From: Gammaproteobacteria bacterium
GTDB taxonomy: Bacteria > Pseudomonadota > Gammaproteobacteria > Steroidobacterales > GCA-2729495
NCBI GenBank assembly: GCA_029245525.1
Contig: JAQWPD010000101.1
Span: 47,197-111,196, forward strand
DNA length: 64,000 bases
Reading direction: 5' to 3'
A program made the translations under genes and the position numbers. This document shows, one piece after another, positions 22,937-31,901 of this stretch. Below the pieces are notes generated by a model. That model was not told where the DNA came from. It did not search any database and worked only from the letters and a program-made list of their open reading frames with translations. Each line of letters opens with the position of its first letter. The first letter of the stretch is position 1.

Positions 22937-22994
22937 ATGCTTTTGCGGCAAAAATCCGCAGAATGGCTTCACAACTGCCCGAAGCCAGTCATGC

Positions 22995-23147
22995 TTAGAA
23001 CAATGTATAGATAAACGGTGCCGCTGCAGAACCCTGGGCAACAACAATCAATACACCAAGCAACAACATCACAAGAATAATCGGCGCCAACCAGAACTTT
23101 TTGCGCTCTCTCATGAAGCCCCACAAATCCTTACATAAATCAATCAT
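22995..23147 (-). CDS. DUF5989-type micro-protein (50 aa, one TM); absent from the ORF track
   Basis: Hand translation gives MIDLCKDLWGFMRERKKFWLAPIILVMLLLGVLIVVAQGSAAAPFIYTLF*. The ATG shares 1 nt with the SxtJ TGA. The motif FMRERKKFWL...APFIYTLF is the signature of the small protein found with SxtJ and carbamoyltransferase. Confidence 0.75.
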   Translation of the reverse strand: MIDLCKDLWGFMRERKKFWLAPIILVMLLLGVLIVVAQGSAAAPFIYTLF

Positions 23148-23602
23148 CAGAAGGGGTTCTCCAGGTTTTTAATCGGATTGTCTTTTGAAATAACCCTATA
23201 GGTGTCAACACTGTCATCCAGCTTGCGTGCCATGGCGTCTTTGCCCATAACTCGCATAACCAAACCAATCGGGGCAAACATTAGGTAGAAAACAATGCCC
23301 ATAATCAGGGGAGTCATAACCTTGCTCATCATCAGGCCGAAGCTCATCCAAACATGATGCACGCCTTTCAGACTCATCGGGGCAACCAAGCCCCATACAA
23401 TCAGCAGGCCTCCCAGTAGAAATGGCCAACGCAACGCTGTTTGAGATGGCTCTAACGCACCCCAAAAATCATAGCTGTGAAGGAATCTAATTTCTGAAAA
23501 CAGCCATGGAAAAAGAAAACCGAACAGACCGATAATAATTAGGCCGGTAACAACCCCGAAATCACGTAAACCCTTCTTGTCTAAAACAGGAATTTCATGC
23601 AT
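23147..23602 (-). CDS. SxtJ-family membrane protein
   Basis: 151 aa. KGLRDFGVVTGLIIIGLFGFLFPWLF plus further TM segments. Position immediately after the carbamoyltransferase gene. Confidence 0.7.
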   Translation of the reverse strand: MHEIPVLDKKGLRDFGVVTGLIIIGLFGFLFPWLFSEIRFLHSYDFWGALEPSQTALRWPFLLGGLLIVWGLVAPMSLKGVHHVWMSFGLMMSKVMTPLIMGIVFYLMFAPIGLVMRVMGKDAMARKLDDSVDTYRVISKDNPIKNLENPF

Positions 23603-23607
23603 AGCTA

Positions 23608-25458
23608 TTAATCCAACTCAAACTCATCTTTCCAATCATCGGTACCCTCCCACTTGGGCTGATCTTCTTTAGAAAGCAGAAAGTTATCAACAATCAAATA
23701 ATCCATCTCAGTGCGCATAAAGCATCGATACGCATCATCGGCAGTCATCACAATAGGCTCGCCGCGGACATTAAACGAGGTATTTACTAATACGCCGCAG
23801 TCTGTTTTCTTATTAAACTCACTAAGCACATTATAGAAATACGGATTAGTCTCTTTGTGCACGGTTTGGATTCGGGCCGAATAGTCAACATGAGTAATTG
23901 CGGGAAGCTTTGAGCGAGGCACATTCAATTTTGCAATGCCAAATAACTTATCCTGCTCCTCGGTCATTGCAATACGCTGCTCTTCAACAATTGGAGCAAC
24001 AATCAGCATATATGGGCTGGGGCGGTCTTGAACAAAATATTCGGACACGCGCTCAGCTAAAACTGCAGGGGCAAATGGCCGGAATGACTCACGGTATTTA
24101 ATTTTAAGGTTCATCACCGACTGCATCTTCGGGCTGCGCGGATCACCGATGATAGAACGGCCGCCTAAAGCACGCGGACCAAACTCCATACGGCCCTGAG
24201 CCATACCAATAACATTTTCGGTTGCCAGAATCTCGGCAACGCGGGGGAAGAAGTCAGCGTCTTCAAGCTGTGTATAAACCGCACCGTACGCATCCAGATC
24301 TTTTTTAATGCCTTCCTCGGTGAACTTAGGCCCAAGATAAGAACCGCTCATCAAGTCATTCTTGTTGTCGACGGCGCGCGGGCCATCTTTATAGTGATGC
24401 CAAATAACAGCAGCAGCCCCCAAAGCGCCGCCAGCATCACCTGCAGCAGGCTGAATCCAGATATCTTTAAACGGACCATCACGAAGAAGAATCCCGTTAG
24501 AAACACAGTTAAGCGCTACGCCACCAGCCAAACACAGATAGTCCGCACCGGTTTCTTTGTGCAATGTTTTGGCAAGCCGCATTACTACAATCTCAGTAAC
24601 TTTCTGAATCGATGCTGCAAGATCCATTTCCCGCTGAGTAATTTCAGTTTCTGCTGTACGCGCCGGGCCACCAAACAGATCTGCGAACTTATCGTTCGTC
24701 ATTGTCAGACCGGTGCAGTAATTAAAATAGGACATATCGAGGCGGAATGTGCCATCTGCCTTCAAGTCGAGCAGATTCTCCAAAATCAGATCAACATACT
24801 TAGGCTCACCGTAGGGCGCCAGACCCATTAGCTTGTATTCGCCTGAGTTAACTTTAAACCCGGTAAAATACGTAAATGCTGAATACAGGAGCCCCAAGGA
24901 ATGGGGGAAATCAATTTCCCATAAAGGCTTGAGGTGATTGCCCTCACCAAGCCATGCCGACGTTGTGGCCCACTCGCCAACACCATCGAGACACAACACC
25001 GCAGCCTTGTCATAAGGACTGTAGAAAAATGCAGAAGCCGCATGAGATTGATGATGCTCAGCAAACATAAGATCGGGCAGTTCTTTTTGTTTGCAGCCTG
25101 CTAATTTCGAGAGCTCACGCTTTAACGTGGTTTTTAAATAAAGCTTCTCTTTCAACCAAACAGGCATCGCTGCAATAAATGAACGGAAACCTTGTGGCGC
25201 ATAAGAAAGATACGTTTCGAGTAGCCGCTCAAACTTAACCAGAGGCTTGTCATAGAAAACGACATGATCAACATCAGTTAGATTGATACCAGCTTCTTGA
25301 AGACAGTACTGAATCGCTTCGGCAGGAAAACCCGGATCATGCTTTTTACGAGTAAACCGTTCTTGTTGAACCGCCGCAACAATATCCCCATCGTGGATCA
25401 ATGCCGCTGCACTGTCATGATAGTAGGCCGAAAGCCCTAAAATATAAGTCCCGCTCAC
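23608..25458 (-). CDS. Carbamoyltransferase (NodU/CmcH family)
   Basis: 616 aa. N-terminus ILGLSAYYHDSAAALIHDGDIVAAVQQERFTRKKHD (ASKHA/Kae1-like) and C-terminal YrdC-like carbamoyl-AMP domain (VNTSFNVRGEPIV). Confidence 0.9.
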   Translation of the reverse strand: MSGTYILGLSAYYHDSAAALIHDGDIVAAVQQERFTRKKHDPGFPAEAIQYCLQEAGINLTDVDHVVFYDKPLVKFERLLETYLSYAPQGFRSFIAAMPVWLKEKLYLKTTLKRELSKLAGCKQKELPDLMFAEHHQSHAASAFFYSPYDKAAVLCLDGVGEWATTSAWLGEGNHLKPLWEIDFPHSLGLLYSAFTYFTGFKVNSGEYKLMGLAPYGEPKYVDLILENLLDLKADGTFRLDMSYFNYCTGLTMTNDKFADLFGGPARTAETEITQREMDLAASIQKVTEIVVMRLAKTLHKETGADYLCLAGGVALNCVSNGILLRDGPFKDIWIQPAAGDAGGALGAAAVIWHHYKDGPRAVDNKNDLMSGSYLGPKFTEEGIKKDLDAYGAVYTQLEDADFFPRVAEILATENVIGMAQGRMEFGPRALGGRSIIGDPRSPKMQSVMNLKIKYRESFRPFAPAVLAERVSEYFVQDRPSPYMLIVAPIVEEQRIAMTEEQDKLFGIAKLNVPRSKLPAITHVDYSARIQTVHKETNPYFYNVLSEFNKKTDCGVLVNTSFNVRGEPIVMTADDAYRCFMRTEMDYLIVDNFLLSKEDQPKWEGTDDWKDEFELD

Positions 25459-25726: not shown

Positions 25727-26077
25727 TTAGGGCTGCGCAAGGCCGAGTTCCCATTTTTCCAAGGTTTCCGGCATAAAACCACCTCTGGAATAGATCTCAA
25801 GGTAGTGCAAGCATCCATTTTTCATGAACAGGCTGCTTCCGGCTCCATCCATCAACATATCGCTACTGATATGAGGACATACCGGTCGGGTTCCATCCGG
25901 TATAGGGACAAATCCTTCGGGAACGCCCAGATACAAAAACAGACCGGTACCCATAAAATCGCGTTTTTGCACCTCAGCAGCGGCGATCTGGTCTGCCAAC
26001 TCCTGACTCCCAGAATGCTGCGCAATCCAGCCAAGAACCGCTTGCTCAAGCTCACCCATAAATAGCCCGCCAAACAC
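25727..26077 (-). CDS. Hypothetical small cytoplasmic protein (116 aa)
   Basis: Its composition looks more protein-like than the antisense 151-aa ORF. No family recognised. M7 (MGELEQ) is an alternative start. Confidence 0.4.
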   Translation of the reverse strand: MFGGLFMGELEQAVLGWIAQHSGSQELADQIAAAEVQKRDFMGTGLFLYLGVPEGFVPIPDGTRPVCPHISSDMLMDGAGSSLFMKNGCLHYLEIYSRGGFMPETLEKWELGLAQP

Positions 26078-26188
26078 TCAAAAATTGATCATCGCACACC
26101 AATTTTAATGGTACGCAATCTCTTTATATAAACCATGTTTTCCGCGCCAATGGACGTCGACTCCCGGCCGAAGCGATCGTTGACGCGC

Positions 26189-26869
26189 TTAAATTATTGC
26201 TGAAACCGCGTTCATGTATTTCGAATGCCTCGCGACCCTGATAGGCAAACCATTAAGCACTTGAGTAGCCAGCTGACGCTGAGCACGATCAAACTTACAC
26301 TCAACAACAACAGTCTCAGGCAGATTCGCCTTCAGGCGAACATTTGGTCGAGGATTTTTCCGCTGATCCCACACCATCTGATCGAAGTCGAGGGTAACCC
26401 GAATACGGCCACATGCGCTCAAATAATAAAAACGCCGATAGTGATTAATCATTACAGCCCAAGGATTTTGCTCCAGCCAGAGACGACCCTCGTGATCAAG
26501 CTGAAGGGCTATCATGTCGCGGATTTCTGTCCATGTTGTGCGGTCATCAACCGGCAGGTCTTTAACTTTGTACAGCAGTTTCCAGCCGTACTGATTACGC
26601 TTTTGCTTGATCTCAAGCTTGCCGGGAGACGGCAGTAAACTGTCCCCATACCAGCGATACCGTACTTTTGTGCGGTCACTTACGCCGGCCAAGTTCTCGG
26701 CATACGCTGAGTACTCCAAGGTATCAAAGTAAACATTATGCACCGTGCGCATCGGATACGCCTCTGAAAATGCCAGAGGGTGCAACCGCAGCCACTGGTA
26801 CACCACATCTGTATCACGCCGATTCGTAACAAACTTAATTTCTTGTCGGGCGCCGTCAGGAACTAACAT
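26189..26869 (-). CDS. VTC-domain (CYTH-like polyphosphate polymerase domain) protein
   Basis: RQEIKFV...VHNVYFDTLEYSAY...RTKVRYRWYGD...KLEIKQKRNQYGWK matches the bacterial VTC-domain pattern. The ATG shares 1 nt with the upstream TAA. Confidence 0.75.
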   Translation of the reverse strand: MLVPDGARQEIKFVTNRRDTDVVYQWLRLHPLAFSEAYPMRTVHNVYFDTLEYSAYAENLAGVSDRTKVRYRWYGDSLLPSPGKLEIKQKRNQYGWKLLYKVKDLPVDDRTTWTEIRDMIALQLDHEGRLWLEQNPWAVMINHYRRFYYLSACGRIRVTLDFDQMVWDQRKNPRPNVRLKANLPETVVVECKFDRAQRQLATQVLNGLPIRVARHSKYMNAVSAII

Positions 26870-29583
26870 TACTGGCGATCCTCCGGTTTAGGCCGCCGTA
26901 ACCCTGGCCTCATAACAGTGTTATAAAGTTCATCCACATCAATATCCTCCGGAGCAAACTCCTCGCCATCGAGAATTACCCGACTGCCGGTCTGCACCAC
27001 TGCGACCGCACGATTACCCTGCAGAGTCATATTCCTGGCCACTACTTCGGCGATGCCAAACTCTGGCTTCTTTATGTAAGCCATCAAGGCAGAAATTCTG
27101 GAATTAAAAATAGAAGAGTTTGCTATGTCGAGACGAGAGCCATCCTTGGCAGCAGCGCCCGTCCCGCACGCTTCAATAAATAAGTTTTCAGCCTGCACCT
27201 GACTGGCCTCGCCGACAGAGAGCGCTTTATCGTCGACATTTAAAAACCGTGTGCCATTCAGGCTAATATTACTTGTGCTGACGTCAACAGCATCTCCGCC
27301 TCCAGCGGTGCCGATACCTTCAAACAGACCGCCGATAATTTTGCCGGTGCAGAAATCACAGTCAAACCCATCGGACAAGGTATCAATAATCTGTAAATTA
27401 CTAATCGCAAAATCTGAGCTAATAATATTTAGTCCGTCCTCACCCTTATGATGCAGGATTGAGATGTCGGACATATCAACAGAATTGCGGTAAAAATTTG
27501 TGCCGCCCATCAGCTTCCAAACACCCAACTCCACGCCGCGAGTATCTTCCACAACCACATTGCTCCAGCGCGAACGCTCCGGCGCAGCAAACGCAACAAA
27601 CCCCAACCAGCTGTCCGCACCTGCCTCGGCGAGCAATTGCACAGGCTCCGCGACAGTGCCTTCAAAAAAGACATTGCCGCGAACAATCAAGGCAGCATCC
27701 TCGGCAAAACGCAAAGTAGTACCGGGACCCGCTTGAAGGGAGTAGCCTTCGGGGAAGGCCATTGTACTAGTGACTGACCACTCTCCTGCCGCAATACTCA
27801 CCTTTTTTGCAGACTCATCAAGCGATAAAAAGCTTGATATGGCCAACAGCTCATCGATACCCATAACAGGGATGGGGTTGCGATTAACCAAGGGCGCCTG
27901 CTTGACCGCTTTAATATTAAAGCCACGATCCTGTTGCCTACCCAAAACCAGAATGGTCTCCTCTGCCAAATCTGCAGGCAACTCTATTCTAGTCACCGGT
28001 GAAATATCATTAACTGCTCTGCTTTGAAGCTCCAGGGGCAAACCCGGCAAAACAATCTGTTGCCCATCCACCTCTATAGCATCTATCGTCACGGGGTAAG
28101 GAATCGCCGATGCCAAATCAAGATACGTCCGATCGCCGTCAATAACCTGGTATGCACGCAGCGCATTGGGGTAATAACTGGAAACACCTTGAGGCTGGCC
28201 AACCAAAAAATTAGCCGCTTGCAATTGGGTGTCATTAAGCGATCCGAGAAACGCCGCACGCTGCTCAATTTCATTCAAGGGATACTTAGGCAGAAAGAAA
28301 TATTCACTGTGCAGAATGTCAAGAAGCCGGCGCTCCTCTTCGCGCATGCTATCAATCAGCTCGCCTGTCTCAACTCTTGCGACCAAATCAGATAAAACCT
28401 CTTTGTAGCGTGCGAAAATTTTTGGATCCTGCAACATTTGCTGCACCATCGCTTCTTTCGCAGAGATATATTCATCGCCTGATTCACGCTGCTTAAGGCT
28501 TGCATCATAAGCAATGGGCTCCATCTTGAGCGTTATGGGGTTCATGTAAAATCGCTGGTTATGCCAGCGGATCGCATGAAACGCTCCCATTAACTCACTG
28601 ACCGCTAAGTAAGCCCCCATCGTATTAGCATCAAAAATTTCCGATGCTGCAACACGACCCTCACTGAAGGCACGAAGCATTCCTGAGGCAATCTGCGACT
28701 GACCATAGAGCGTGGGTGAATCGCTCAGCTTACCGCCCTGAAATACATCCGTAGCAGCATTGCGGAAATCATCGTAAACACCACCGAAGCCATTACCGCG
28801 AGGACCATCGAACGAACTAAAAACAAGGTCCTCATCGTAGCGGACAATAACGCCCTCACGGCGCGACTGCGACTCAAGCAACTCTTTCGAGAAGTGCTCT
28901 TCCAGTGCCATGATGCCAAGATCATTGCCGTTAAGCATCATGTTAACGTACAGATAACGCGGTGTCAGAACACCATAGTCCCGTAAAACATGGAAGTACA
29001 AATTCTCCGAATGGTAACCGCGCACAGCTGGGTTCTGTACGGAAAAATTCCGCATCCCGAGATAGGTTTCGCCTTTACGGACCTGCACCCGAAAGGACCA
29101 TTTTTCACCTCGCACGTGATCGGTAAAGTCTCCTTTCAAACGGATTTTTACAGGAATTGTGTTATCGCGACCACGAATTTTAGCCTTAACGAATGAGTCT
29201 TCCGTCTGGACAATACGCCCTCGGATCAAGGCTTCATCGCGCTGCTCATAGATAGCGCGCATATCTCGAAACTTCACATCAAGAACAAGGTCTGGAATAT
29301 CCCCATCAGAGCTCACGCTTGCTATGACATTGGGCCCTGCTTGCAAACTGGCGCTCAGCAGTCCTGGGCCATTATCAAATGCGGCATGCCCCCTTTCCCA
29401 AGGAAAGAGCAATATAGGGCCGTACTCGGCCTTTAGGTAATTGCTTGAAAAGAGCTTGGGATTGCCCAAACCTTCAATCAGGTAGGCGCAAACCAGCAGC
29501 ACCGGCACGCCCAAAATAAGCAGCACAGATGGTTTGGGGAAACGCCGCTTACCTCTGGCCGGCTTGCCGCCTTTGAGCTGCAT
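26869..29583 (-). CDS. Membrane-anchored CotH kinase-family protein with C-terminal parallel beta-helix repeats
   Basis: N-terminal TM segment SVLLILGVPVLLVCAYLI. CotH-like core YFHVLRDYGVLTPRYLYVNMMLNGNDLGIMALEEHFSKELL. The C-terminal ~330 aa contain Gly/Asn/Asp-rich repeats typical of right-handed beta-helices. Confidence 0.7.
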   Translation of the reverse strand: MQLKGGKPARGKRRFPKPSVLLILGVPVLLVCAYLIEGLGNPKLFSSNYLKAEYGPILLFPWERGHAAFDNGPGLLSASLQAGPNVIASVSSDGDIPDLVLDVKFRDMRAIYEQRDEALIRGRIVQTEDSFVKAKIRGRDNTIPVKIRLKGDFTDHVRGEKWSFRVQVRKGETYLGMRNFSVQNPAVRGYHSENLYFHVLRDYGVLTPRYLYVNMMLNGNDLGIMALEEHFSKELLESQSRREGVIVRYDEDLVFSSFDGPRGNGFGGVYDDFRNAATDVFQGGKLSDSPTLYGQSQIASGMLRAFSEGRVAASEIFDANTMGAYLAVSELMGAFHAIRWHNQRFYMNPITLKMEPIAYDASLKQRESGDEYISAKEAMVQQMLQDPKIFARYKEVLSDLVARVETGELIDSMREEERRLLDILHSEYFFLPKYPLNEIEQRAAFLGSLNDTQLQAANFLVGQPQGVSSYYPNALRAYQVIDGDRTYLDLASAIPYPVTIDAIEVDGQQIVLPGLPLELQSRAVNDISPVTRIELPADLAEETILVLGRQQDRGFNIKAVKQAPLVNRNPIPVMGIDELLAISSFLSLDESAKKVSIAAGEWSVTSTMAFPEGYSLQAGPGTTLRFAEDAALIVRGNVFFEGTVAEPVQLLAEAGADSWLGFVAFAAPERSRWSNVVVEDTRGVELGVWKLMGGTNFYRNSVDMSDISILHHKGEDGLNIISSDFAISNLQIIDTLSDGFDCDFCTGKIIGGLFEGIGTAGGGDAVDVSTSNISLNGTRFLNVDDKALSVGEASQVQAENLFIEACGTGAAAKDGSRLDIANSSIFNSRISALMAYIKKPEFGIAEVVARNMTLQGNRAVAVVQTGSRVILDGEEFAPEDIDVDELYNTVMRPGLRRPKPEDRQ

Positions 29584-30269
29584 TAGACGCTTGGAAGATG
29601 ATTCTGGTCGAGGAAGGTAATGCTGATGTCAGGGAATGCTTCGCGCAACGAGTCGACCAAGCCACTCAATGACTGGTCATCACGTAAATCGACAAGGTAG
29701 GTTGCTGATAACATCGCCTCACGAATATCATAGCGGCGTAAATCGCCTTTTGCAGCATGACTGACAATCACTTTATTTATTTCTTCAAGCTTACCTTTCT
29801 GCGTTGCTTGATCGCCTTCCCAATCCAGAGACAAGAATAGCTGACGGCCGGTATCACCTTGGCGAACCCATTTGAGACCCGCCATGGCACCGAGAATAAA
29901 CAGGGTAGCGATTACCGTCGGTACAGTCTGAGATGCACCAAGGCCAAGGCCAACAGCAATAGAAATAAAGAGGTAGGCCAATTCTTCAGGCTCTTTAATC
30001 GGTGTACGGAAGCGCACGATAGAGAGTGCGCCAACCAAACCCAACGACAAGGCGAGAGACGATTTAACGACCATAATAATCAGCACAACCGTTAGTGAAA
30101 CAAACGGAAATACCTGCGCAAACTCATCACGATTAGAAAGTGTTGAACCAAAACGTTTAAAGTGCCATCGGACGATCATCGAAAGAATAACGGCCACAAT
30201 AAGATTGAGCAGTAACTCAGGGATGGATAGTGGGGCATCGGAGCCAAAGGCTGAAATTTCGTCAAGCAT
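29583..30269 (-). CDS. DUF4956-domain membrane protein
   Basis: LLLNLIVAVILSMIVRWHFKRF...SLGLVGALSIVRFRTPIKEPEELAYLFISIAVGLGLGA is characteristic of DUF4956. First gene of the triad. Confidence 0.75.
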   Translation of the reverse strand: MLDEISAFGSDAPLSIPELLLNLIVAVILSMIVRWHFKRFGSTLSNRDEFAQVFPFVSLTVVLIIMVVKSSLALSLGLVGALSIVRFRTPIKEPEELAYLFISIAVGLGLGASQTVPTVIATLFILGAMAGLKWVRQGDTGRQLFLSLDWEGDQATQKGKLEEINKVIVSHAAKGDLRRYDIREAMLSATYLVDLRDDQSLSGLVDSLREAFPDISITFLDQNHLPSV

Positions 30270-30466
30270 GAAAAATATCCTGCTTAGTGTTGTTTAAGAG
30301 TTAAACCGCGTGACCCAGTGTCAACGGAGTACACAACTTAACTTAAAAGCGGCGGAAATTTAACAAATTCGTCACAAAAATGGTGATTAATACCTCAGAA
30401 TTGTGCTCCGACCAACCACCATGGGGCGACACAAGCCATCTAATTCATACTGACGCCCAGTAACTT

Positions 30467-30490
30467 GAGTGTTATTTTGAGCGTTATTTT
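30467..30490. repeat. Tandem 12-bp direct repeat GAGTGTTATTTT GAGCGTTATTTT
   Basis: Read directly. It ends 65 nt upstream of the pyrophosphatase ATG in the 286-bp divergent spacer. Confidence 0.6.
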
Positions 30491-30555
30491 CTCCACTCTT
30501 TAGGGTAAGCCGAGGTACTCTCGGCAATTCCGGCAGGAATCCACACGGTCAAACA

Positions 30556-31203
30556 ATGAAAAAACTATTATTTTTAATGTGCTTGCTCAACGCGACCGCC
30601 TGTGTCGCCGATAAACAGAGTAACGCAGCTGATGAAATCGCAACTCCCGCAAACATCTTGTTCGACTACCCCACTGTAGTTCAACCAGGTCTGGTCAACT
30701 TGCTGGTTGAGATTCCCGCTGGAACACAGCAAAAGTGGGAGGCCATGAAGTCCGGTGATGGACTTAAGTGGGACAGAAAGAATGGTCAACTTCGGGTCAT
30801 CAATTACCTACCCTACCCTGGCAATTACGGCATGATTCCTAGAACGCTGCTACCTCGTGAAGCCGGTGGTGATGGCGACCCGCTGGATGTCATCATGCTC
30901 GGTAGCTCAGTGCCACGTGCTACGGTGATAGCAGTTAAGCCCATTGCAGTGCTCCGACTCCTAGATAACGGCGAGCAAGACGATAAAATTCTTGCGGTTC
31001 CACTGGAGGGCGCCATGAGTGACCTAAGTTCGCTGGCTGAGCTCAACCAGCGATACGCTGGCGTTACACAAATTATCGAGCTCTGGTTTACCCACTACAA
31101 AGGTTCAGGCCGCATGGAATCGCAAGGTTATGCCGATAAAGATGCCGCCTGGGAAATGATCAATATCGCCAGCCGCGCCTTTGACGCCAAACACAGCGAT
31201 TAA
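30556..31203 (+). CDS. ppa: Family I inorganic pyrophosphatase with N-terminal signal peptide / possible lipobox
   Basis: PPase core LVEIPAGTQQKWE...YPGNYGMIPRT...GDGDPLDVIMLG, preceded by MKKLLFLMCLLNATAC. Confidence 0.8.
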   Translation: MKKLLFLMCLLNATACVADKQSNAADEIATPANILFDYPTVVQPGLVNLLVEIPAGTQQKWEAMKSGDGLKWDRKNGQLRVINYLPYPGNYGMIPRTLLPREAGGDGDPLDVIMLGSSVPRATVIAVKPIAVLRLLDNGEQDDKILAVPLEGAMSDLSSLAELNQRYAGVTQIIELWFTHYKGSGRMESQGYADKDAAWEMINIASRAFDAKHSD

Positions 31204-31217
31204 AGCTACACCTGAAC

Positions 31218-31901
31218 ATGCCCAATAAAAAAGCATTCGACTCATACCGCAAGCGGCCTATACGCAGCTTCGTCCAGCGGACAGGCCGCATGACCGAAGG
31301 GCAAAAGCGCGCCTTTGATTCTCTGTGGCAACAGTACGGCGTCAATTTTGAAGCCTTACCACTCGATCTCTCTTCAATCTTCAGTCGTGATGTTTATCGC
31401 ACGTTGGAAATTGGCTTCGGCGCTGGCACATCATTTGTAGAAACCGCAAAAAAATACCCGAATCATGATTTTCTCGGCATCGAGGTGCATGAACCGGGCG
31501 TAGGACGCTGCATGCTAGAGGCTAGTCAGCAAGACCTTAGCAACATTAAACTTATTTGCCACGATGCTGTTGAGGTGTTGAGAGACCAACTGCCGGCAGA
31601 CAGCTTCGATTGCATCAATTTGTTTTTCCCCGACCCGTGGCACAAAAAACGCCATCATAAACGCCGCATCGTCCAAGCGGAATTTGTTACGACACTAAGC
31701 AGCAAACTGCGTAGCGGCGGAATTTTTCATGTCGCAACGGACTGGCCAAATTATGCCGAACACATTCAGAACGTGTTTAATCAACAGCAGCAACTGCGCG
31801 AACATACAGGCGAAAACCCCTGGCGACCGGCAACACGATTTGAGAACCGTGGCGTCAAGCTTGGTCACAATATCTGGGAAAAAGTTTTCGTCAAGCAATA
31901 G
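31218..31901 (+). CDS. trmB: tRNA (guanine46-N7)-methyltransferase
   Basis: LEIGFGAG SAM motif and FPDPWHKKRHHKRR, which is diagnostic of TrmB. Confidence 0.93.
   Translation: MPNKKAFDSYRKRPIRSFVQRTGRMTEGQKRAFDSLWQQYGVNFEALPLDLSSIFSRDVYRTLEIGFGAGTSFVETAKKYPNHDFLGIEVHEPGVGRCMLEASQQDLSNIKLICHDAVEVLRDQLPADSFDCINLFFPDPWHKKRHHKRRIVQAEFVTTLSSKLRSGGIFHVATDWPNYAEHIQNVFNQQQQLREHTGENPWRPATRFENRGVKLGHNIWEKVFVKQ

Follow-up and report, generated by a model that had tools for sequence, protein, structure and literature searches.

A DUF4956, CotH-like/beta-helix and VTC-like gene trio found across bacterial phyla, with exported phosphohydrolases as recurrent neighbours

We analysed a 64,000-nucleotide stretch of the genome of a Gammaproteobacteria bacterium of the order Steroidobacterales (assembly GCA_029245525.1, contig JAQWPD010000101.1, positions 47,197 to 111,196; hereafter the window, with positions counted from its first nucleotide). 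Three adjoining genes on the minus strand, referred to below as the trio, encode a DUF4956 membrane protein of 228 amino acids (aa) (gene 1, 29583..30269, assigned with Pfam), a membrane-anchored, predicted periplasmic protein of 904 aa composed of a CotH-kinase-like domain, a beta-sandwich and a right-handed beta-helix (gene 2, 26869..29583, assigned with Pfam, AlphaFold2 and Foldseek), and a stand-alone VTC/triphosphate-tunnel protein of 226 aa (gene 3, 26189..26869, assigned with Pfam and profile matches). Across a divergent spacer of 286 bp (30270..30555) lies, on the plus strand, a gene for a family I inorganic pyrophosphatase (PPase) of 215 aa with a signal peptide and a probable lipobox (30556..31203, assigned with Pfam). 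All four Pfam matches exceed the gathering cut-offs (E-values 3.1e-16 for DUF4956, 1.8e-7 for CotH, 4.9e-23 for VTC and 2.8e-31 for Pyrophosphatase), and none of the trio proteins is covered by an NCBIfam model. An initial annotation, made from the sequence alone, had read the locus as a DUF4956 membrane protein, a CotH kinase-like core behind a single N-terminal transmembrane (TM) anchor, a VTC-like domain and an exported PPase; these assignments hold on the evidence given below, and the gene positions, the overlaps at 29583 and 26869 and the length of the spacer agree exactly with the list of open reading frames (ORFs) and the sequence. Both minus-strand junctions have the form TAATG, a 1-nt overlap of stop and start codons, and a terminator-like hairpin of 11 pairs followed by a T-run lies 70 nt past the VTC stop codon (26091..26119, minus strand; a consensus match alone). 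The three minus-strand genes thus constitute one translationally coupled operon, of which the hairpin is the probable end.

The distribution of the trio was assessed in two independent samples. In GTDB contigs, taking one genome per species, tblastn confirmed 246 places of the CotH-beta-helix protein, and 79 loci were analysed by searching hidden Markov models (HMMs) of the window proteins against six-frame ORFs, with flanks of up to ~10 kb on each side. These loci span more than 10 phyla: Gamma- and Alphaproteobacteria, Nitrospirae, Nitrospina, Myxococcota, Planctomycetota (including Ca. Uabimicrobium), Acidobacteriota, Chloroflexi, Elusimicrobiota, Armatimonadota, Spirochaetes, Vampirovibrionales and others. 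The VTC-like gene was found in 68 of them and the DUF4956 gene in 67, and the same-strand order DUF4956-CotH-VTC was kept in 63 of 77 loci, the exceptions being mostly truncated contigs. The CotH and VTC genes share 4 nt in 36 loci and 1 nt in another 10, and mean column identity across phyla is 44–58% for the three trio proteins. When 2244 flanking ORFs were clustered, no other broadly conserved neighbour emerged, only synteny within lineages and glycan genes at loosely raised frequency (GT1 in 10 loci, NAD-epimerase in 7, GT2-GtrA in 7 and AsnB in 5).

The second sample consisted of 80 metagenome loci obtained with a scan seeded with a distant VTC subfamily (alignment A8, ~35% identical); a metagenome scan with the single protein P0484 gave no loci. 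Except at contig ends, the VTC gene adjoins a CotH gene in metagenome loci of at least 4 kb; it also adjoins a DUF4956 gene where the contig suffices. Gene order varies in this sample and includes CotH-DUF4956-VTC, DUF4956-VTC-CotH, DUF4956-short CotH-VTC-long CotH, and a canonical-like CotH combined with a short one. The cassette is sometimes duplicated within a genome: several metagenome-assembled genomes (MAGs) carry two CotH-beta-helix loci on separate contigs (L009/L013, L010/L023, L026/L029, L014/L028, L024/L043, L050/L066 and L053/L057), and Ca. Uabimicrobium amorphum has two trio loci (L040 and L061), with one more in Ca. Uabimicrobium sp. HlEnr_7 (L048). In L048 (13040..13993) and L061 (13000..13998), a Hanks-type Ser/Thr kinase gene (Pkinase, E ~1e-50) directly follows the VTC gene. 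A protein with no Pfam match is encoded at the same place in a Myxococcota MAG (L052, 13335..14165) and a Spirochaetaceae MAG (L062, 5267..6586); the two copies are 72% identical over 240 aa, which suggests a recent transfer or an additional accessory gene.

The VTC-like protein matches Pfam VTC (PF09359) with 82.3 bits against a cut-off of 23 and over its full length (HMM positions 2–233 of 235). A profile made from 53 trio-linked homologues (A2) matched only Vtc2, Vtc4 and Vtc3 among solved structures, with E-values of 5.5e-10 to 1.5e-7; a single-sequence search of the PDB with the VTC-like protein gave no match. Compared with Vtc4 (chain 3g3q, also 3g3o), the motifs aRlEiK/VRQTTK, tKvRyRWYG/AHRLRWYG, inrYkRkYf/RSFYNRTAF and vRvTlDt/VRISLDT are kept. 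In Vtc4 these shared motifs presumably include K200, R264/R266, R361 and R373 in the numbering of Hothorn 2009, the tunnel set also counting K281. Residues R8, E10, K12, R41, K68, R70, R72, K88, K97, R146, R157, D161, E190 and K192 are invariant among the trio-linked proteins, and the basic tunnel residues are also invariant in a wider set at 25–36% identity (A7). The family is large: a VTC scan of 1.84 billion representative proteins returned 2988 clusters at E ≤ 1e-3 and 1911 at E ≤ 1e-10, and the best 150 clusters are nearly all stand-alone proteins of ~230 aa. The window protein has no signal peptide, no TM helix and no SPX or DUF202 match in Pfam, and is predicted to be cytoplasmic. It is likely, though not certain, to be a polyphosphate (polyP) polymerase; it retains one Glu (Glu10) of the ExExK motif of hydrolases, in the form RxExK.

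The 904-aa protein was modelled with AlphaFold2 from an alignment of 67 homologues (A1), with a mean predicted local distance difference test score (pLDDT) of 90.7 and a predicted template modelling score (pTM) of 0.89. All its parts are encoded on the minus strand. The N-terminal TM anchor (aa 19–40, 29464..29529), recognised in the sequence and as a helix of the model, is preceded by the Lys/Arg-rich segment KGGKPARGKRRFPKP, which by the positive-inside rule points to an N-in orientation with the remainder outside the cytoplasm; juxtamembrane helices follow the anchor in the model. The CotH kinase-like domain (aa ~98–455, 28219..29292) was delimited by Pfam (aa 147–398), Foldseek and hhalign, and scores 31.4 bits against a cut-off of 23.8 for Pfam CotH (PF08757). 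It is followed by a beta-sandwich linker domain (aa 475–562, 27898..28161), seen in the secondary structure of the model, and by the right-handed parallel beta-helix (aa 586–871, 26971..27828), defined by the model, Foldseek and the invariant residues of A1. The initial annotation had proposed about 330 aa of beta-helix-like repeats; the fold was right, the length is ~285 aa, and the beta-sandwich had not been noticed.

The best Foldseek matches of the model in the PDB are Bacillus cereus CotH structures 5jd9/5jda (E 1e-10, target TM-score 0.63–0.67), followed by right-handed beta-helices that act on polysaccharides: GH87 glucanases, phage tailspikes, the AlgG epimerase, GH28, PL3 and PL6. A single-sequence PDB search with the same protein gave weak matches only. 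More than 716 homologues have a length of ~900 aa, and many of them also carry the Pfam Beta_helix domain PF13229; the window protein itself did not match PF13229 in the Pfam search (E cut-off 0.01), and its beta-helix is evident from the model. Its counterpart in Chromatiales bacterium SI072_bin130 is 91% identical; the window as a whole corresponds to MAGs of uncultured Chromatiales-like Gammaproteobacteria, and ENA metagenomes contain contigs identical to it. Successive coils of the beta-helix bear a ladder of invariant residues (E715, D716 and N719; S737, D738, D741 and D743; D764 and D767; D785, K786 and E792; K813 and D814; Y836 and K838). The beta-helix also aligns, weakly, with rhamnogalacturonase A (E 0.018). 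With its invariant Asp/Glu/Lys ladder it has the look of an active-site groove and not of a passive stalk.

The active site of the CotH domain was compared with that of spore-coat CotH by aligning 24 canonical spore CotH proteins (A4) with A1 using hhalign (probability 74%), and residues were counted by column after hmmalign of all homologues. Equivalents of the N-lobe residues are kept in the 904-aa protein (R45/G46 as K150/G151, H48 as H156, K54-S56 as K161-S163, and E123 as E229), and both groups share the catalytic-loop segment HN...Y.N......E. The catalytic Asp of B. subtilis CotH is D228 (D223 in B. cereus), and the D228Q mutant is inactive (PMC7821199). In the alignment the canonical catalytic Asp pairs with His336/Ala337 of the 904-aa protein, and the catalytic Asp itself is missing. 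The His336 codon (28576..28578, minus strand), placed by hhalign and hmmalign, was checked in its context AFHAI. The residue is present in 73 of 78 proteins of the genome set and 28 of the 31 aligned from the metagenome set (101 of 109 long members overall); the corresponding fractions are 74/78 and 28/31 for Asn342, and 74/78 and 27/31 for Asp360. Asp360 pairs with the Mg-binding Asp (B. subtilis D251) in the hmmalign and ungapped alignments, whereas hhalign places it at the second Asp of a DxD. The few canonical CotH proteins that align in this region have Asp at column 336 or 337 and a DFG-like Asp at column 360.

The domain thus retains its nucleotide/phosphate and metal ligands, whereas the general base has become His. 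Since His336 is nearly invariant, its presence would reflect altered chemistry, with the His as a base or phospho-acceptor, rather than decay, and the trio proteins point to CotH-fold enzymes of a new class, marked by His where the catalytic Asp is expected. In some metagenome loci the DUF4956 and VTC genes are accompanied by two CotH genes (L103, L110, L113 and L129, and also L116, L119, L142 and L165). Of these two, a short paralogue of ~550 aa has a degenerate site (Glu or Gln at 336, Asn at 360), and the other is a canonical-like or a long beta-helix CotH; such loci could pair an enzyme with a pseudo-enzyme.

The DUF4956 protein scores 60 bits against a cut-off of 30.6 for Pfam DUF4956 (PF16316). 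Its mean column identity across phyla is 58% (A3), with the invariant block GxVGALSIVRFRTxxKxPEEL. The AlphaFold2 model of this protein was made from a single sequence, has an overall pLDDT of 58 that is low in the TM part, and is interpreted in its C-terminal domain alone. It contains about five TM helices (aa 16–137), followed by a beta-alpha-beta-beta-alpha-beta domain (aa 142–221, pLDDT 70–83) that weakly matches the PII-like protein SbtB, the MgtC C-domain 2lqj and ferredoxin-like folds (Foldseek E ~5e-3). This ACT/PII/MgtC-C-like domain is predicted to be cytoplasmic. The match to Pfam MgtC (PF02308) is below threshold (E 0.039, 14.7 against 31.4 bits), which leaves the protein outside the MgtC family. 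In S. intermedius, SIR_1592 has been described as MgtC-like plus ACT (PMC12345266), in agreement with our model.

Exported phosphohydrolases recur next to the trio. The window PPase scores 108.9 bits for Pfam PF00719 and contains the active-site signature DGDPLDV (D-x-D-P-x-D), and it remains far below the NCBIfam equivalog cut-offs (75.7 against 200 bits). Its N-terminus is hydrophobic, with LNATAC as a slightly off-consensus lipobox variant; clear lipoboxes (SATAC, LSAC, LTGC and SSGC) are found in its closest homologues. It belongs to a large exported subfamily, with 1324 matches at E ≤ 1e-10: among the 120 nearest homologues (P0241–P0360), 109 have a hydrophobic, signal-like N-terminus and 58 a lipobox-like motif. 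Exported family I PPases are encoded in Gammaproteobacteria, Planctomycetota, Bacteroidia and Calditrichota amid varied sets of genes (including loci L086–L089), and their periplasmic role seems little studied. A PPase adjoins the trio in 4 of the 79 genome loci, which represent three lineages: two close relatives of the window (L007 and L008), Methylomarinum (L019), where it lies directly upstream on the same strand, and a Myxococcota MAG (L052), where it is divergent. All four of these PPases have lipoboxes (LSAC, AVAC, LTGC and SSGC). No PPase is adjacent in any of the 80 loci of the metagenome sample, and four of four more distant exported PPases (P0264, P0270, P0278 and P0360) lie in unrelated neighbourhoods. 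The proposal that a signal-peptide PPase is a conserved partner of the trio fails because of this rarity and these unrelated contexts; the PPase would be a facultative accessory of the trio, not a core part.

Other exported phosphohydrolases occupy the same position more often. A metallophosphoesterase adjoins the trio in 12 genome loci (L011, L017, L018, L019, L020, L024, L030, L040, L078, L079, L080 and L083) and in L078 and L080 lies between the DUF4956 and CotH genes. Pfam Metallophos was confirmed for representatives of the 12 loci, all of which have a signal peptide or TM anchor. An NPP-type phosphodiesterase/pyrophosphatase adjoins the trio in L039 and a PhoD in L025, both with a signal peptide. 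In the metagenome sample 12 loci have a metallophosphoesterase gene, which often begins at the VTC stop codon; all of the encoded proteins carry a signal peptide or TM helix. Among 95 immediate neighbours classified with Pfam, Metallophos ranked first, and PPase came just behind Metallophos and four methyltransferase models that overlap one another. The metallophosphoesterase HMMs, serving as an internal control, matched nothing elsewhere in the flanks. PDB searches with the neighbouring metallophosphoesterases gave marginal matches to purple acid phosphatases or none. Altogether an exported phosphohydrolase adjoins ~18 of 63 complete trios (29%), and these enzymes belong to four unrelated families. 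Because non-homologous exported phosphohydrolases replace each other in the same slot, a functional link between the trio and extracytoplasmic phosphoanhydride or phosphoester turnover is plausible. The initial annotation had suggested a system for phosphoanhydride chemistry outside the cytoplasm with the PPase as a partner; the suggestion survives in this broader form, with the PPase as one rare, facultative version.

The three families have been seen side by side before. In Gram-positive bacteria, cotH, a polyphosphate polymerase gene, DUF4956 and DUF4832 were described as accessory genes that adjoin pel operons (Whitfield 2020, PMC7112168), and the NELoc-2 locus of C. perfringens contains pairs of VTC and membrane-protein genes beside cotH and a chitin-synthase-like gene (PMC2879425). 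In S. intermedius SIR_1592-1594 were deleted (mBio 2025), and loss of the DUF4956 and CotH homologues altered the level of Pel and aggregation (PMC12345266); the mutant phenotypes were mild. Thus, contrary to what had been proposed, the system is not undescribed. The other part of that proposal, that the trio has no experimentally defined role, stands as far as biochemistry is concerned: its biochemical function in bacteria has not been defined. The S. intermedius authors did not find the synteny outside pel loci (PMC12345266); our survey contradicts this, as the trio is widespread without pel genes. A published map of the VTC domain covers eukaryotes only (PMC10657179). In the literature that we covered, which left out many subscription journals, we found no paper on the beta-helix variant, the His substitution or the phosphohydrolase neighbours. 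What we describe is therefore a widespread variant of a gene trio that was noticed earlier and never characterised biochemically.

Comparison with the known systems brings out what is particular to this variant. Like the Gram-positive pel accessory genes, it combines an exported CotH, a cytoplasmic VTC-like protein and a multi-TM DUF4956 protein with a C-terminal ACT-like domain. In contrast, the window CotH is fused to a beta-helix and not to FN3, and the cassette is free-standing, with no pel, other polysaccharide, glycosyltransferase or DUF4832 genes among the genes called within 10 kb on either side. With spore-coat CotH of Bacillus (5jd9/5jda) the trio protein shares the atypical kinase fold and equivalents of R45/G46, H48, K54-S56, E123, N228 and the Mg-binding Asp. 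Unlike spore CotH, it has His in place of D228, is membrane-anchored and predicted to be periplasmic, carries a beta-sandwich and a beta-helix as fused domains, and is found in non-sporulating Gram-negative as well as other phyla. The DUF4956 protein resembles the MgtC family in its about five TM helices and C-terminal ferredoxin/ACT-like domain, and differs in its own invariant motif SIVRFRT..K.PEEL and in always being encoded with VTC and CotH partners. The window PPase is like E. coli Ppa in its Pfam match and DGDPLDV signature and unlike it in its lipoprotein-type signal peptide and its membership of a large exported subfamily.

The eukaryotic VTC complex shares with the trio a homologous tunnel domain with Vtc4-type basic motifs, encoded here together with a membrane protein, and a metallophosphoesterase across the membrane as a frequent partner, comparable to Ppn2 in the vacuole lumen. 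In yeast, VTC delivers polyP into the vacuole lumen, and there the metallophosphatase Ppn2 cuts it alongside Ppn1, which is inhibited by pyrophosphate (PMC7381174). The bacterial 226-aa protein differs in being stand-alone, without SPX or the fused three-helix TM domain of DUF202 type that makes up the polyP channel in eukaryotes; the membrane partner in bacteria is the unrelated MgtC-like DUF4956, and the obligatory CotH-like partner is absent from eukaryotic VTC.

From what was observed (the structure of the genes, their families and folds, the conserved residues and the statistics of the neighbourhoods) we infer that the trio is a conserved envelope machine in which cytoplasmic polyP synthesis feeds an extracytoplasmic His-type phosphotransferase or glycan enzyme. 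We give this reading a probability of about 0.45. By homology, the VTC-type enzyme would use ATP to make polyP, or would handle a triphosphate or polyP chain, at the inner face of the membrane. The DUF4956 protein might dock or regulate it and, more tentatively, provide a path across the membrane. The periplasmic protein, which joins the His-type CotH domain to a beta-helix like those of glycan enzymes, with a conserved acidic groove, would then most likely transfer phosphate or a polyP chain onto or near an envelope glycan or protein. Because the periplasm has no ATP, the donor may be an exported phosphoanhydride rather than ATP. Judging from recurrent adjacency, the exported phosphohydrolase (in the window the lipoprotein PPase, in more of the loci a metallophosphoesterase, occasionally an NPP or PhoD enzyme) might trim or recycle the phosphoanhydride products, in parallel with the action of Ppn1 and Ppn2 on the VTC product in the yeast vacuole lumen. 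In its boldest form, which we consider unlikely as a whole, the trio would be the bacterial equivalent of the VTC machine and a third bacterial route for polyP beside PPK1 and PPK2: polyP made from cytoplasmic ATP would pass through or along a DUF4956 oligomer to the periplasm and serve as donor for the CotH phosphotransferase, which, via His336 and possibly a phospho-His, would phosphorylate or polyphosphorylate a glycan held by the beta-helix, with metallophosphoesterases or PPases recycling the leftovers. PolyP as a donor would in that case solve the lack of extracytoplasmic ATP.

Several observations weigh against the proposal of an envelope machine. Glu10 is retained in the VTC-like protein, and the triphosphate-tunnel (CYTH) superfamily includes hydrolases/triphosphatases and cyclases besides polymerases. 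The substitution of His for Asp could mean that CotH has lost kinase activity. DUF4956 has no relation to DUF202, the membrane domain of the eukaryotic VTC complex, and MgtC, which it resembles, is to our knowledge a regulatory protein and not a known channel. The topology is a prediction, ~70% of trios have no adjacent phosphohydrolase, and the window PPase looks co-transcribed with trmB (31218..31901, from the ORF list), which starts 14 bp past the PPase stop codon. In S. intermedius, deletion of the VTC homologue gave no clear phenotype, the authors suggesting that polyP stays in the cytoplasm (PMC12345266).

That last suggestion belongs to a different account, in which the trio is an accessory module for exopolysaccharide or capsule: CotH would be a conventional ATP-dependent kinase, or the beta-helix a glycan hydrolase or epimerase, with a surface polymer or its machinery as the target, polyP would remain cytoplasmic, and DUF4956 would be an MgtC-like regulator of phosphate or ATP. 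The location of the Gram-positive trio in pel operons and the altered Pel levels and aggregation of its mutants speak for it, as do the chitin-synthase-like glycosyltransferase beside the C. perfringens copy, the similarity of the beta-helix to AlgG, GH28 and GH87, the weak MgtC match of DUF4956, and the loose enrichment of glycan genes nearby, to which a UDP-glucose dehydrogenase, a sulfotransferase and a pectate-lyase-like gene can be added. However, most trios, that of the window included, stand alone without polysaccharide genes within 10 kb; a periplasmic kinase would have no supply of ATP, its catalytic Asp is replaced by His, and the exported phosphohydrolase neighbours would go unexplained. 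We regard this account as rather unlikely. The odds are poorer that the VTC-like protein is a tunnel hydrolase or nucleotide cyclase in a transmembrane signalling device, where the CotH/beta-helix protein would sense a glycan and the ACT-like domain and tunnel enzyme would make or destroy a small phosphate signal. The diversity of the CYTH superfamily, with its cyclases and triphosphatases, and the retained Glu10 would suit such a device, and in DUF4956 the C-terminal domain is similar to ligand sensors of the PII/ACT type, for example SbtB. Against it, among solved tunnel enzymes the profile finds the Vtc2/3/4 polymerase branch and no other, every one of the Vtc4-like basic tunnel motifs is invariant, and it would be unusual for a sensor to conserve an enzyme-like site so strongly in both its CotH domain and its beta-helix.

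A compact, mobile-looking cassette of three genes that recurs in many phyla with variable neighbours might also be an anti-phage defence or toxin system. This reading was rejected because PADLOC gave no match for any of the proteins, and we consider it very improbable; there is no integrase or other mobile-element signature among the recurrent neighbours, and the mean column identity across phyla is housekeeping-like. A separate question is whether the PPase belongs to the system at all. It may well be an unrelated housekeeping periplasmic lipoprotein, transcribed with trmB and next to the trio by chance in this lineage, a view that we hold to be a little short of even odds. The frequency of adjacency (4/79 and 0/80), the size of the exported family with its 109 signal-like N-termini among 120, the unrelated neighbourhoods of all four distant PPases, the 14-bp gap to trmB and the lack of a shared regulatory site in Pho-box and sigma-70 scans all favour chance. 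Yet three independent lineages (Chromatiales-like, Methylomarinum and Myxococcota) place a lipoprotein PPase beside the trio, where a rough chance expectation is ~0.4 PPase genes of any kind over all flanks, and the same slot holds other exported phosphohydrolases in more than 20 further loci.

Bacterial polyP is currently credited to PPK1 and PPK2, and VTC-type polymerases are regarded as eukaryotic. The stand-alone bacterial VTC-like family comprises ~3,000 clusters at 50% identity and, in both samples, lies beside a membrane protein and an exported kinase-like enzyme. The trio may represent a prokaryotic ancestor or analogue of the VTC system and a possible mechanism for energy-dependent phosphorylation outside the cytoplasm. 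The hosts are abundant marine and sediment bacteria (Chromatiales-like bacteria, Nitrospina, Nitrospirae, Beggiatoa-like bacteria, Myxococcota, and Planctomycetota including Ca. Uabimicrobium), and because of this the trio, if it acts in surface or extracellular polyP, would have a bearing on marine phosphorus cycling and on biofilm matrices.

The surroundings of the trio in the window show some further features. A search for the Pho box (CTGTCATN4CTGTCAT, with up to 3 mismatches) gave 5 matches in the window, which is chance level, and none in the 286-bp spacer; a scan with the sigma-70 consensus likewise found no sites in the spacer, with counts at the level of shuffled sequence. A 20-bp block of the spacer, AATTTAACAAATTCGTCACA (30357..30376), is the same in the window, L008 and L007, with the remaining spacer diverged among the three. 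It reads TGTGAyGAATTTGTTAAATT on the trio strand and is a candidate for an operator or promoter that is shared. Upstream of the PPase start, a 12-bp sequence is duplicated in tandem (GAGTGTTATTTT GAGCGTTATTTT, 30467..30490) and is present in a single copy in the close relative L008. Just past the hairpin lies a 110-aa ORF (25727..26059, minus strand) that is kept in the closest relatives L007 and L008 only and has no match in Pfam, NCBIfam or PADLOC. Farther downstream of the trio, at 22990..25458 on the minus strand (11411..15892 in L001), the genes follow a saxitoxin-like sxtI/J/K arrangement: a NodU/CmcH-type carbamoyltransferase (616 aa), an SxtJ-like protein (151 aa) and a DUF5989 protein (50 aa), followed by DUF6687 and glyoxalase-fold genes. 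A carbamoyltransferase gene lies less than 10 kb from the trio in four unrelated loci as well (L018, L020, L076 and L079).

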